Source of the DNA: a virus
Taxonomy: Duplodnaviria; Heunggongvirae; Uroviricota; Caudoviricetes
Direction: 5' to 3' (one strand)
IMG/VR virus record: IMGVR_UViG_3300021254_000022
Location: 4,857-68,856 of that record
Length of the DNA stretch: 64,000 nt
Positions 39,083 through 64,000 of the stretch are shown piece by piece. Under the pieces are notes generated by a model. It was given only the letters and a program-made list of their open reading frames with translations. It made no database searches and was not told the DNA's origin. Within the stretch, counting starts at the first letter, position 1. The number at the start of each line of letters is the position of its first letter. Position numbers and translations under genes: made by a program.

Positions 39083-41005
39083 ATGGCTAAAAAAGATTTA
39101 TTAAATTATGGAGTTAAAGATATAAAAACTCTTGAGGGTATTGAAGCCATTCGCCTAAGACCTGGTATGTATATTGGTAGTACTGGGCCGGAAGGTGTAA
39201 AGCAAATTACTCTCGAAATCATTTCAAATGCAGTAGATGAATATTTAAATGGGTATTGTACAAGTTGTTCAGTTATTGTAGGTGAAGATGATGATCTCGA
39301 TATTATTGATAATGGACGCGGCATTCCATTTGGAAAAGCACAGGACGGCAGCGAAACATTAGTCAATGTTTTTACAAAATTACATACTGGTGCAAAATTC
39401 GATAGTGAAGGTAAAACAGGATATAATACATCGGGTGGCATGAATGGTGTTGGTGCAAAAGCTACTAATGCTCTTTCATATTATTTTAATGTTTCTTCTG
39501 TAAGAGATGGCAAAAATTGTATTGCTTGCTTTCAAAGAGGTCGGCTTTCTGGTGAAGTTATTACTAGAGATTGGCAGACAACAAATGATTATCAACATGG
39601 AACAAGAATTCAATTTATGCCTGATGAAGAAATTTTTAAAGAAGGTATAACACTTGATTATAACGATTTAAGAAAAACTTTACAAGAATTAGCTTATCTT
39701 TCTCCTGGATTGGTTTTTCATTTCAAGTATAAAGATAAAGAATCTGAAGATATAACTTCTCAGAATGGTATTCTTGATTATATTAAAGACTTAAATCAGA
39801 AAAAGAATGTTTTAACTTCTGTTTTTTACGCTGAAAAAGTAGAAGATAGAATCGGAGTTAAAATTGCTATGGACTATAATGATAGTTACTCCGATACATA
39901 TAAACTTTATACAAACTCAATTCCAAATACAGGTGGTACTCATTTAACTGGTTTTAGAACAGCTTTAACCCAAACAATTAATGAGTATGCAAGAGAGAAA
40001 AAACTTCTTAAAGATAAAGATACTAACCTTACCGGCGAAGAACTTAAAGAAGGATTAACTCTTGTGCTAAGTTTTATTATGCCAGATCCTGTATTTTCTG
40101 GTCAGACTAAAGAAGTTCTTTCCAGTAGTGAAGCAAGAACTATGGTTCAACGTCTTACTTCACAGGAACTTAAAAATTGGTTTGAAACACATCCTAATGA
40201 CGCAAAAGCTATTGTTGATAAAGCTTTACTTGCACGAGCAGCGAGAGAAAAAGCTAAGAAAGCAAAAGAAACAGTTAGAAAACAGGATATTAAAAAGAGA
40301 GCTGTATTGCCAGGAACTTTGGCTGATGCAAGTTCTCGAGATAGAAAGAAATGTGAAGTTTTTATTGTTGAGGGTAAATCCGCTGCAGGCAGCACAAAAG
40401 AAGCAAGAGATAGAACTACTCAGGCTGTTTTGCCAGTTAGAGGCAAAATTCTTAACACTTTAAAAGTAGATTTGCATAAAGCATTAGGAAATGCAGAAAT
40501 TAGTGCTATGATTGATGCATTTGGATTGGAGATAAAGGATGGCAAAGTCATTGTAGATGAAAATAAACTGCGATACGGAAAAATTATTATCACAGCTGAC
40601 GCGGATGTAGATGGGTCTCATATCCGTGTGCTCTTCCTCACTTTCATTTGGAAATTCGCTCCAGAACTCATCGAAAAAGGATATATATATGCAGCAGTAC
40701 CCCCTCTCTATAAGGCAACTGCGGGCACTACATTCCGGTATCTTAAAGACGATGCAGAACTTGAGCAATTTAGAAAAACAACTAAACGAAATTTTGAACT
40801 CGGTCGAATGAAAGGTCTTGGTGAAATGGATCCGAGTGAAATGGCTGAAACCGTTATGAATCCAGAAACAAGAACTTTAAAACTTATTACGATGGATGAT
40901 CTTCAAGAAGTTGCTCAGACTTTTAATGATCTTATGGGACAAGCAGTTACCCCCCGTAAAAAGTTTATTGAAGAGAATGCTTGGAGGGCAAATGTCGATG
41001 TCTAA
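39083..41005 (+). CDS. gyrB: DNA gyrase subunit B
   Basis: GHKL ATPase + Toprim motifs across 640 aa; no in-frame TAG. Confidence 0.9.
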   Translation: MAKKDLLNYGVKDIKTLEGIEAIRLRPGMYIGSTGPEGVKQITLEIISNAVDEYLNGYCTSCSVIVGEDDDLDIIDNGRGIPFGKAQDGSETLVNVFTKLHTGAKFDSEGKTGYNTSGGMNGVGAKATNALSYYFNVSSVRDGKNCIACFQRGRLSGEVITRDWQTTNDYQHGTRIQFMPDEEIFKEGITLDYNDLRKTLQELAYLSPGLVFHFKYKDKESEDITSQNGILDYIKDLNQKKNVLTSVFYAEKVEDRIGVKIAMDYNDSYSDTYKLYTNSIPNTGGTHLTGFRTALTQTINEYAREKKLLKDKDTNLTGEELKEGLTLVLSFIMPDPVFSGQTKEVLSSSEARTMVQRLTSQELKNWFETHPNDAKAIVDKALLARAAREKAKKAKETVRKQDIKKRAVLPGTLADASSRDRKKCEVFIVEGKSAAGSTKEARDRTTQAVLPVRGKILNTLKVDLHKALGNAEISAMIDAFGLEIKDGKVIVDENKLRYGKIIITADADVDGSHIRVLFLTFIWKFAPELIEKGYIYAAVPPLYKATAGTTFRYLKDDAELEQFRKTTKRNFELGRMKGLGEMDPSEMAETVMNPETRTLKLITMDDLQEVAQTFNDLMGQAVTPRKKFIEENAWRANVDV

Positions 41006-41228
41006 AGAAGAAAGAACTGTTAAATTATTTGACAAAGAAGTTATGTTAAGTGCTTTTAAGCCTGAAAAAGGTGAAACTGTATTCTTAACAATTGATCCTG
41101 ATAAAGTAGATATAGAAGTAGCTTCTCAATGGGGCAAATATTTATCAGAGATGTTCCCTCAAAATAATATTATGATAAAATTAGACGGAATGACAATAGA
41201 ATCCTTAATGGAGGACGATTTAAAATGA
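41000..41228 (+). CDS. hypothetical small protein
   Basis: ATG 41000 overlapping the gyrB stop. Confidence 0.35.
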
Positions 41229-63300: not shown

Positions 63301-64000
63301 GTTCACCTAAAGATTATTATCAGAGGGTTAAGCCGAAGAAACCAGCAATGATTTCTTTAATTAAAGGTGGCGCTTTTGATGATATGATGGATCGTAAAAT
63401 GTGTATGGCATGGTTCATTTATGAAACATGTGATAAGAAAAGTCGATTGACGTTACAAAATCTTCCGACTTTGATGAAAAGAAATATGTTGCCAGTTGAT
63501 ACAGAAGAAAGAAAGAATGCAAGAAGAATATATGAGTTTACTCGTTATTTGAAAGCAAAATGTAGAAAAACGGCAGCTGATGTAGAATATAATCTTGATG
63601 ATAGAGCAATGAACTTTTTGCAGGATATAGGATTTGAAAATTATGATGGTTATCATCTTAATGCAAAAGTTTGGGATAAATATTATCAAGGTTGGATGGA
63701 TGTTTTTAGAGAATGGATTAAAGCAGATTCAGATCAAATTCTTCAAACTCTAAATGATGAAATCTTTTTAGATGACTGGAAAAAATATGCAGATGGTAAT
63801 TTATCTCATTGGGAAATGGAAGCTTTGTGTTTCTATTACCATGAGCATGAGTTGGCACATCTGAATAAGGGTAAGTATGGAATTGTAGATTTTAAAGATC
63901 TTAAACCATATCCAGTAGTTGAAGAAGTATGGCATCGCGGCGGTAAGACTATAAACATCTTTAAATTGAATAAAATTTGTGGAACTTGTATTGCAAAAAA
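60357..64000 (+). CDS. dnaE: DNA polymerase III alpha subunit (PHP N-terminus), 3'-truncated by the window edge
   Basis: PHP motif GIHNHTMYS...AITDHE; frame open to the window end with no stop of any kind. Confidence 0.8.
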   Translation, partial: MRNYFGIHNHTMYSNLRLLDSINRPKDLIDTAIKLGLSGIAITDHESLGAHVEVNKYAEEVYKEHPDFTIALGNEIYLIDGERGNDQKKYYHFILISKDAIGHRALRELSSTAWFYGYESRRQERVPTLKSELIDIVERYKGHLIATTACIGGELPSLLLQKWKSLPKEENDNFMNSLLAADVEEYNKKINNFLALMLRLFDEDFYIECAPSDKPDQILANQLLRKVAEEWNIKMVVGTDAHYLTKDQRAIHKAYLTSKEGEREVDEFYEFARLMDSDEVEQLLNLSFQNKSFVQEILDNTLEIQSKIKRYSLFHKQDIPEVPVKNYEPSAWWGVNNDYADDMKHSYPTLCKLFTSEDPQDRYWVNENWNKLDEMNKGWVHACETGDYTYLDRLEEEARVKSIISEKLETNMFRYPNTLQHYIDLIWECGSMVGAGRGSSCAALNHYLMGITQLDPIQWDLPFFRYLNEERVELGDIDIDICPSKRPLILQKIKEERGQWLETDQEWAKENLGCTLIATYGTEGSRSAVLTACRGYRSEDFPEGIDVDDARYISSLIPEERGFTWSIKEVYYGDKEKERRPVAVFVKEVDKYPGLLEIMLAIEGLVNKRGSHASGVILFNGDPFEHSAFMKTPNGEVITQYDLHDAEYMGLTKYDFLVTEVQDKLVQAIELMQYDGELPSNLSLREIYDKYFHPNVIPLDDEKIWEALSNVSVINTFQFDSPVGAQAAKKIQPHTVLEMADANGLMRLMGEEGEMRPLDKYVRNKKNIDLWYKEMDNWGLTKDEQRYLEPYFLKSYGVPPSQEQLMTMLMDEHICNFSLGEANAARKIVGKKQMSKIPELHQKVLDKASSKRLGEYVWKYGAGPQMGYSFSIIHALAYSFIGVQTLYIATHWNPIYWNTACLIVNSGATDPENGGQTDYSKIAKAMGEIIEAGINMSLVNINSSDYGFLPDAKNNRILYGMKAMLNINDDLIEATIKNRPYSSPKDYYQRVKPKKPAMISLIKGGAFDDMMDRKMCMAWFIYETCDKKSRLTLQNLPTLMKRNMLPVDTEERKNARRIYEFTRYLKAKCRKTAADVEYNLDDRAMNFLQDIGFENYDGYHLNAKVWDKYYQGWMDVFREWIKADSDQILQTLNDEIFLDDWKKYADGNLSHWEMEALCFYYHEHELAHLNKGKYGIVDFKDLKPYPVVEEVWHRGGKTINIFKLNKICGTCIAK

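Follow-up and report, generated by a model that had tools for sequence, protein, structure and literature searches.

Graded, gene-by-gene avoidance of in-frame TAG in a phage clade with members that read TAG as glutamine

Partial recoding of phage genomes was described by Borges et al. (bioRxiv 10.1101/2021.08.26.457843), who found that replication genes keep the standard code or are recoded 'variably', that the recoded codon is enriched among genes for lysis and structural proteins, that close relatives with the standard code exist, and that the stop codon was depleted beforehand; in their model early translation proceeds in the host code and a suppressor tRNA later unlocks the recoded genes. 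Kienbeck et al. presented a version of this code switch based on suppressor concentration. For crAss-like phages, Peters et al. 2022 (PMC9523058) present metaproteomic evidence that TAG is read as glutamine (Gln). The human-gut phage phAss-1 (proposed Phassvirus; Babkin et al. 2023, PMC10607447) is ~136 kb long with a predicted Clostridia host, uses TAG for Gln in 28% of its open reading frames (ORFs), and carries suppressor tRNA(CUA) genes and many tRNAs with no dedicated synthetase. Genomes in which standard- and reassigned-code genes coexist block-wise are described in the Mgcod preprint (bioRxiv 10.1101/2022.06.29.495998). Here we examine the use of in-frame TAG codons in a 64,000 bp stretch of a tailed phage (Caudoviricetes; IMG/VR record IMGVR_UViG_3300021254_000022, positions 4,857 to 68,856), referred to in full as the window, and in particular in the genes of its replication module. 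TAG use follows a conserved, gene-specific gradient of avoidance rather than a clean split between gene classes.

The genes of the window were re-called with TAG as a sense codon and annotated by Pfam and PHROGs, giving 73 genes and 18,282 codons with 37 in-frame TAGs among 572 Gln sites; TAGs are found in 17 genes and are absent from the other 56. An initial annotation of this DNA had singled out eight replication genes, gyrB, rnhA (RNase H), gyrA, ligA, the DnaB-like helicase, the primase, the Dda-like helicase and PolIIIalpha, as lacking in-frame TAG, and the re-called genes bear this out (together 4,749 codons and 148 Gln codons), as does the complete PolIIIalpha gene of 1,319 codons on the source contig. 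Its functional assignments are all confirmed by Pfam and PHROGs, and its TAG counts stand for the GIY-YIG protein, the lysin at 20858 and the 35261 gene (Table 1), as well as for the Cys-repeat and GT2 genes (two each) and the peptidoglycan hydrolases at 4040, 15423 and 37318 (three, one and one). Among the TAG-bearing members of the replication module, the counts for the Sak4-like ATPase and the 59026 gene are unchanged, and the RecJ-like exonuclease has three TAGs rather than the two first given. Three other, independent assemblies carry the same TAGs in RecJ and in the 59026 gene, which are thus not sequencing errors.

A sceptical account would attribute the pattern to chance and post hoc grouping, with the 'core' being whichever genes happened to lack TAG: the set was chosen after looking, with RecJ, Sak4 and the 59026 gene set aside, and 56 of the 73 genes are TAG-free anyway. 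The hypergeometric probability over Gln sites of finding no TAG in the eight named genes is 1e-5, albeit for genes picked post hoc. When TAGs are allocated randomly over Gln sites, the observed heterogeneity between genes (G, p=6e-4) and the count of Gln sites that fall within genes without TAG (p=5e-5) both exceed expectation, and TAG density at the scale of the window is therefore not uniform. With a replication class fixed from annotation, and including RecJ and Sak4, TAG occupies 4 of 187 Gln sites as compared to 9 of 66 in wall hydrolases (Fisher p=0.001; 0.7 versus 4.3 TAG per 1,000 codons, the structural genes lying outside the window) and 23 of 245 in unclassified genes (p=0.002). Replication and other nucleic-acid genes differ from all others (p=3e-5). 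The effect persists when low-GC3 genes (GC3, GC content at third codon positions) are taken alone (3/172 versus 26/194, p=2e-5). These annotation-class and global tests (p = 0.001 to 3e-5) weigh against chance, as does the return of the same ranking in 28 other recoded genomes described below. Chance is refuted for gyrA, ligA and PolIIIalpha, and as a general account is hardly credible; the TAG-free state of DnaB, primase and Dda in this genome is not a clade-wide rule.

The proposal that TAG use is specific to gene class stands insofar as annotation classes differ, and gives way at the level of individual genes to the gradient noted above. The region 39083-64000, which includes the replication module, is only modestly poorer in TAG (12 TAGs in 7,991 codons) than the remainder of the window (25 in 10,291), and many non-replication genes are equally TAG-free, as in the RNA-repair block at 23.6-35.2 kb with its single TAG (30861). 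The signal is per gene and not per module. Lysins had also been put forward as requiring suppression, and the lysin at 20858 is indeed rich in TAG, but the most TAG-rich genes are two nucleases of the replication module (GIY-YIG and RecJ), alongside small genes without assigned function, and lysin 37318, with 1.8 TAG per 1,000 codons, is under the window mean.

The gradient is seen most clearly by comparison with relatives. A metagenome scan with a DnaB alignment yielded 80 loci with 63-99% DnaB identity, among which 15 are standard-code loci without any TAG in at least 2,000 aligned codons and 31 are recoded to varying degree; clade totals use 28 recoded loci, with strain-level duplicates left out. 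Gene order is conserved throughout the clade. In the 28 recoded loci, gyrA, ligA and PolIIIalpha together have 4 TAGs in 22,395 codons (0.65% of Gln codons), DnaB, primase and Dda have 99 in 27,885 (10%), and GIY-YIG and RecJ have 327 in 19,271 (35%). The TAG share of GIY-YIG and RecJ is above that of gyrA, ligA and PolIIIalpha in all 19 loci that have both, and above that of DnaB, primase and Dda in 28 of 28. Gene by gene, gyrA has no TAG in five recoded relatives (3,571 codons), ligA one in 10,355 codons (16 relatives) and PolIIIalpha three in 8,469 codons (eight relatives), and gyrB, for which few recoded relatives have coverage, is without TAG in those. At the other end of the range, TAG makes up 38% of GIY-YIG Gln codons (22 relatives) and 33% of those of RecJ (163 TAGs in 12,525 codons, 23 relatives). 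The view that core replication genes are TAG-free thus extends clade-wide for gyrA, ligA and PolIIIalpha but not for DnaB (43 TAGs over 28 recoded relatives, carried by 14), primase (38 over 26, carried by eight) or Dda (18 over 11, carried by four); a strain with 99.4% identical DnaB has a CAG to TAG change at DnaB codon 395. Lightly recoded genomes have their module TAGs in GIY-YIG alone, or there plus one to three in RecJ. Where recoding is heavy, DnaB, primase and Dda reach as many as 10 TAGs each, and ligA and PolIIIalpha have 0 to 2. Most of the hits in a corresponding IMG/VR scan based on a PhoH alignment are non-recoded relatives from one sample, and the scan offers little on the lysis genes.

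An explanation by historical accident would hold that TAG-free genes are slow-evolving, or were newly acquired or replaced from standard-code genomes, such that CAG to TAG changes have not yet accumulated. The clade does contain 15 standard-code loci, the GC- and CAG-richer genes are TAG-free, and alleles are mosaic: in strain-level relatives L001 and L002 most genes corresponding to window positions 37318-47722 are 97-100% identical (an otherwise 97-99% identical strain), with only lysin 37318, RNase H, ligA and GIY-YIG at 58-69%, reflecting allele replacement by recombination within the population. However, gene order is maintained, and ligA and RecJ, both with ~50% mean identity to the window, differ ~130-fold in TAG density, which excludes evolutionary lag or recent acquisition as the explanation. 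Likewise, ligA, gyrA and PolIIIalpha of recoded genomes contain only 4 TAGs but 165 CAG codons, any of which a single transition would turn into TAG, so that lack of mutational opportunity is not the explanation either. The divergent L001 alleles behave as their genes do elsewhere, with ligA (69% identity) again TAG-free and GIY-YIG (66%) having 8 TAGs. Historical accident is largely refuted by the ligA/RecJ contrast and the CAG counts, and we regard it as very improbable.

The composition of the TAG-rich genes indicates the direction of the effect. Across the clade, TAG, CAG and CAA occur at ~4:1:6.5 in GIY-YIG and RecJ, as expected from AT-biased drift of three neutral synonyms, which points to purifying selection in the other genes and not to enrichment in these two. 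In the window, TAG-bearing genes are nearly without CAG (CAG:CAA 29:150, versus 165:191 in TAG-free genes; p=2e-12), and several TAG-free genes use almost only CAG (19036, 28589, SPFH and 53739), as does Sak4. The idea that TAG merely replaces CAG roughly holds in the window but fails in the clade, since TAG plus CAG reaches 46% in recoded GIY-YIG genes compared to 16% CAG in non-recoded relatives, and simple replacement is rejected.

Several lines of evidence show that TAG codes for Gln in this phage (genetic code 15). Calling TAG as sense lengthens ORFs, and the resulting genes tile the strand with strong Shine-Dalgarno sites. Pfam domains run across TAGs (GIY-YIG, AAA_24, DHH, RecJ_OB, PhoH, Phage_lysozyme2, Amidase_2, Glycos_transf_2 and Radical_SAM), as do ortholog alignments; the third RecJ TAG (57304) falls inside the RecJ_OB match, and two of the six GIY-YIG TAGs lie in the nuclease domain, one of them at an invariant Gln column (YVGQ). 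The non-recoded relative L003 (69% gyrA identity) has Q at TAGs of PhoH, lysin 37318, GIY-YIG (YVGQ) and Sak4, and swaps between Q codons and TAG occur between near-identical strains. At two invariant-Q columns of non-recoded relatives, the recoded genomes mix TAG, CAA and CAG (13/6/4 and 10/7/2). All 73 genes end in TAA or TGA, a consequence of the ORF definition, and homolog and domain alignments indicate no internal TAG as a true gene end among the called window genes. Among the orthologs in recoded relatives, 326 have TAA or TGA as their stop and only six show a TAG after the aligned part; in non-recoded relatives TAG is the stop codon of about 3 of 202 orthologs, which fits the depletion before recoding proposed by Borges et al.

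The window has 18 tRNA genes in its first 19 kb (ARAGORN, Rfam), including the suppressor with anticodon CTA. Its acceptor end is Gln-like, with U1-A72 (a weak 1-72 pair), G2-C71 and G73, which are identity elements recognised by glutaminyl-tRNA synthetase (GlnRS), and its D-arm is similar to that of the phage's own tRNA-Gln(UUG); the suppressor would presumably be charged by GlnRS. It differs in a ~19-nt insertion that forms an extra long variable-arm hairpin. An exact-pattern scan of IMG/VR for CUA tRNAs with the same anticodon arm (loci L101-L134) found 34 contigs, mostly large, with many >80 kb and up to 415 kb. In most of these tRNAs the variable arm forms a hairpin with covarying stems and a conserved CUGAAG-like loop, the 1-72 pair is weak or unpaired, and G2-C71 and G73 are present. 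Only 19 nt separate the suppressor from the next gene. Rfam finds no hepatitis delta virus (HDV)-like (theta) ribozyme near it at E<=5, and the replication-module loci of relatives contain no tRNA genes. Among the Pfam hits of the window plus 13 kb flanks (77 kb), there is no release factor or aminoacyl-tRNA synthetase domain. A code-change module with one or both of these beside the suppressor is reportedly a feature of only some clades in the Borges model and not obligatory. That study later appeared in Nature Microbiology (2022).

Structured elements lie just upstream of several tRNA genes (255-337, 3820-3903, 9675-9705, 9950-10075, 15205-15313 before the suppressor, and 16075-16197). In each, a 5' 'AAAGACGA-TTCTGCAAA' pairs with a 3' 'TCGTCTTGGG' and encloses tRNA T-arm-like hairpins, and the copy at 9964-10084 has a sub-threshold Rfam match to YrlA, a bacterial Y RNA-like tRNA mimic (29 bits, gathering 69, local E=1.4e-4). 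A tRNA-like sequence at 16107-16169 (27.4 bits against an Rfam gathering score of 29) with an anticodon-loop-like CTGTAAA is located upstream of tRNA-Leu(UAA); it may represent a degenerate tRNA or else belong to the Y RNA-like element there. The GC-rich gene at 19036-20562 (GC3 0.58 versus ~0.2 elsewhere) encodes a DUF2828/DUF7788 protein matching phrog_850 'RNA-binding protein' (E=2e-122). It may be a Ro-like partner of the Y RNA-like elements, although a search of the PDB gave no sequence match to Ro60 or Rsr.

The account we favour, and judge probably correct, is graded selection against TAG, extending from TAG-free genes whose full-length product would be needed before suppression works. 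Under this account GIY-YIG, RecJ, the 35261 and 35765 genes and several wall hydrolases would tolerate TAG, which in GIY-YIG and RecJ of recoded relatives would be a freely drifting synonym of CAA and CAG, at about a third of Gln codons; from most other genes TAG would be removed by purifying selection, near-absolutely in gyrA, ligA and PolIIIalpha and partially in DnaB, primase, Dda and Sak4. This is most likely because the TAG-free genes have to be translated in full while suppression is weak or lacking. Early in infection, host release factor 1 (RF1) would terminate at TAG, and TAG-bearing genes would give protein only after the suppressor tRNA has accumulated, with a delay acting at translation and dependent on tRNA concentration, and not on a separate late promoter. 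Both the timing and the competition with RF1 are inferred.

The predicted transcription units are informative in this regard. All window genes are on the + strand, and a regex scan identified a sigma70-like promoter family, TTGA(T/C)T-N17-TA(T/A)AAT, found 23 times on the + strand, 21 of them between genes, and twice on the - strand; a generic promoter scan found no excess (95 sites versus 94 in shuffled sequence). Members of this family precede the suppressor tRNA as well as gyrB, the DnaB operon, Dda and PolIIIalpha. PhoH, lysin 37318, the 46402 gene, Sak4 and the 57398 gene are each followed by a strong intrinsic terminator. Predicted unit P51622 contains 51903, DnaB, 53739, primase, 55234, RecJ (3 TAGs) and 57398; P57779 contains Dda, the 59026 gene (2 TAGs) and 59669; P49196 contains a winged helix-turn-helix gene, 49623 and Sak4 (1 TAG); and P35212 has three TAG-bearing genes. 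A single promoter class was thus detected for the suppressor tRNA, for TAG-free genes and for one TAG-rich unit; with these shared units and the common promoter type of the suppressor any gating would act after transcription, via tRNA accumulation, in line with the wording of the initial annotation.

A TAG-free sigma-70 family sigma factor and a transfer-messenger RNA (tmRNA) are encoded on the source contig (L098, 1110-1943 and 2795-3107) 4-6 kb upstream of the window. The sigma factor suggests that a second promoter class may exist, although none was found. The tmRNA has the tag peptide ANYEYRMAA, of note where a stop codon is reassigned, and the same stretch has ten more tRNA genes.

A number of observations weigh against this interpretation. 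A clustering of TAG-free genes behind promoters, which the initial annotation proposed to check for early promoters, is not significant: TAG is absent from 14 of the 15 genes next to a promoter, with a baseline of 77% (estimated binomial p ~0.1), and the one promoter class detected fronts both kinds of gene. The labels early and late derive from predicted gene function. The promoter in front of the suppressor tRNA is of the type that precedes presumed early genes such as gyrB and the gp5.9-like RecBCD inhibitor, and the tRNA may therefore be made from the start of infection. TAG is present in genes that are usually needed early or in mid-infection, including RecJ, Sak4, NrdD and NrdG, and DnaB, primase and Dda carry it in relatives. 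Lysin 37318 has one TAG and its divergent L001 allele none. Window TAGs have a mild 5' bias, with 15 of 37 within the first 40 codons (Kolmogorov-Smirnov p=0.014 versus uniform, 0.058 versus CAA/CAG positions), which is weak and varies between genes in the clade, with the opposite trend in primase. Finally, the counts are those of the window, and the structural genes lie outside it.

Some of these points are also accommodated by attenuation of dose or toxicity instead of timing. Suppression would compete with RF1 throughout infection, each TAG reducing the yield of full-length protein, and TAG would be tolerated or useful only in genes that are needed in small amounts or harmful if abundant (nucleases, a holin-like protein, wall hydrolases) and purged where efficient synthesis is needed or where truncated products would poison multimers (gyrase, helicase, polymerase). 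Both saturated genes do encode nucleases, avoidance is graded and not binary, the suppressor has a presumed-early promoter type, TAG-bearing and TAG-free genes share transcription units, and the strongly G-ending genes 46402, 49623 and Sak4, which may be highly expressed, hold little TAG. However, general codon bias is similar in ligA and RecJ (AAG fraction 0.23 versus 0.18) despite their very different TAG densities, and the 908-codon lysin tolerates its four TAGs. We consider attenuation a serious if unlikely alternative, noting that it and timing are not mutually exclusive.

A bolder extension of the timing account, which we offer tentatively and with some doubt, is that saturating TAG keeps the GIY-YIG and RecJ nucleases untranslatable in the standard code, as a graded timer or rheostat inside operons that was first recruited for nucleases rather than lysis and is read by a family of long-variable-arm Gln suppressor tRNAs. 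The nucleases involved would be the membrane-anchored GIY-YIG protein directly behind a terminator and the RecJ-like exonuclease, with neighbours in the same host-type (sigma70-like) operons kept TAG-free, and the variable-arm hairpin might tie charging or maturation of the suppressor to a phage factor. The ordering is seen in at least 28 recoded genomes with non-recoded sister lineages.

Table 1. Coordinates and TAG content of features in the window.
Feature	Coordinates	Strand	In-frame TAGs	Remarks
Predicted promoter TTGATT-N17-TATAAT	15147..15175	+		139 nt upstream of suppressor tRNA
Suppressor tRNA, anticodon CUA	15314..15403	+		ARAGORN; Rfam tRNA 59.3 bits; fold
Glucosaminidase-amidase lysin	20858..23584	+	4	908 codons
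35261 gene	35261-35704	+	5	Small, TAG-dense
35765 gene	35765-36019	+	2	Small, TAG-dense; membrane-protein look, acidic tail
PIN-PhoH ATPase	36016..37272	+	1 (37042)	Pfam PhoH; TAG at column Q in non-recoded relative L003
gyrB	39083..41005	+	0	640 codons; Pfam DNA_gyraseB, Toprim, HATPase_c
RNase H	41225..41764	+	0	179 codons; Pfam RNase_H E=4e-26
gyrA	41730..44102	+	0	790 codons
ligA, NAD-dependent DNA ligase	44112..46073	+	0	653 codons
Intrinsic terminator, strong	46693..46718	+		11-bp stem then T run; ends 4 nt before GIY-YIG start codon
GIY-YIG protein	46730..47722	+	6 (46817, 46985, 47186, 47255, 47483, 47501)	Pfam GIY-YIG
Sak4-like ATPase, AAA_24	50612..51589	+	1 (50726)	TAG aligned to Q in non-recoded relative
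DnaB-like helicase	52211..53737	+	0	Codon 395 = CAG
DNA primase	54125..55234	+	0	phrog_47 E=1e-35
RecJ-like exonuclease	55621..57384	+	3 (55843, 56572, 57304)	Pfam DHH, RecJ_OB
Dda-like SF1 helicase	57839..59029	+	0	
59026 gene	59026..59688	+	2 (59476, 59581)	Function not assigned; between TAG-free Dda gene and 59669 gene
PolIIIalpha	60357..64000	+	0 in visible part	Cut at window end

The window, with a GC content of ~33%, matches a 184,958-bp ENA metagenome contig (ERZ28612963, SHIW14-1 scaffold_88; the source contig), exactly so in the overlaps checked except within a repeat gene. Its replication module is SPbeta-like, with YorF- and YorH-like genes, the DnaB-like helicase, primase, RecJ-like exonuclease and PolIIIalpha, and the phage, roughly 185 kb in size, appears to be of Firmicutes type. 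The host would be Firmicutes-like as well, judging from Shine-Dalgarno use, Gram-positive-type lysin domains and the SPbeta-like genes. A megablast search of the GenBank phage collection with the window gave zero matches, and a protein search of the same collection gave only distant gyrA homologs (<=44% identity) and no close relative. Downstream of the window, the source contig (L094, 15292-19444) encodes NrdD, NrdG and two neighbours with one in-frame TAG each, and a guanylate kinase and dUTPase without TAG.

We note several further features of individual genes. The GIY-YIG protein, whose PHROGs matches are to homing endonuclease families, has a predicted N-terminal membrane helix, a long unannotated region and a C-terminal GIY-YIG nuclease domain. 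A family promoter at 35212 precedes the 35261 and 35765 genes, with PhoH and lysin 37318 further downstream, and the product of the 35765 gene may be a holin. ORF 51586-51858, with three TAGs, corresponds to a terminator plus promoter and was dropped as a gene. In the non-recoded 139-kb relative L003 (5566-9231) the gyrB ORF aligns with just residues 8-511 of the window gyrB, and ~2 kb of extra sequence precedes RNase H; an intervening element may be present within or after gyrB.

Between the lysin at 20858 and the 35261 gene, the segment at 24675-35199 resembles an RNA-repair and anti-defence module, encoding a T7 gp5.9-like RecBCD inhibitor, a Thg1-like tRNA-His guanylyltransferase, an HD protein, three metallophosphoesterases, an RNase T-like exonuclease, an RNA ligase (phrog_968), a nucleoside deoxyribosyltransferase, an SPFH protein and an AAA_33 kinase. 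The Cys-repeat gene, within 11722-15150, encodes a 583-residue Cys/Gly/Ser/Thr repeat protein (CxGC-type) with no Pfam match, and adjoins a small ORF and a radical SAM enzyme (13798-15150); the repeat protein and the enzyme may be a substrate and maturase pair.

The relationship of this phage to described systems is a mixed one. As in the Borges phages there is an in-frame recoded stop codon, a phage-encoded suppressor tRNA, recoding of only part of the genes with replication genes among those compatible with the standard code, standard-code relatives and a stop codon that is already rare, and the interpretation in the initial annotation is the published Borges code-switch model. The clade differs in that we matched it to none of their named clades, recoding is most consistent in two nucleases of the replication module, and the variable arm of the suppressor tRNA is unusual in its length, with no release factor or synthetase gene in the 77 kb examined. 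With code-15 crAss-like and Lak phages (PMC9523058; Devoto et al. 2019, PMC6784885) it shares TAG as Gln and a suppressor tRNA(CUA). Those phages infect Bacteroidota, unlike what is suggested here by the strong Shine-Dalgarno sites, Gram-positive-type lysins and YorF/YorH/SPbeta-like replication genes, and no sequence relationship to them was found. phAss-1 is not a close match either, as GenBank phages gave no megablast match and a best gyrA of 44% identity; its recoded genes are mostly virion genes, which in our phage lie outside the window. Unlike the blocks described for Mgcod, TAG-bearing and TAG-free genes are interleaved here within single predicted transcription units.

Because both the model and the pattern of replication genes in the standard code are already published, the current picture is unchanged. 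This phage is a previously unannotated example from an independent clade that has SPbeta-like replication and is apparently of Firmicutes type. The clade adds both standard-code and recoded members to the case for gene-by-gene recoding under selection and would be a good system for experimental tests of a code switch, and the ranking of genes by TAG could serve as a sequence-only readout of the proteins made before suppression works. Relative to the published descriptions it goes modestly further in four respects: a quantitative gradient of avoidance, recoding that within the replication module is most consistent in two nucleases, the interleaving of TAG-bearing and TAG-free genes within units, and an unusual suppressor tRNA.

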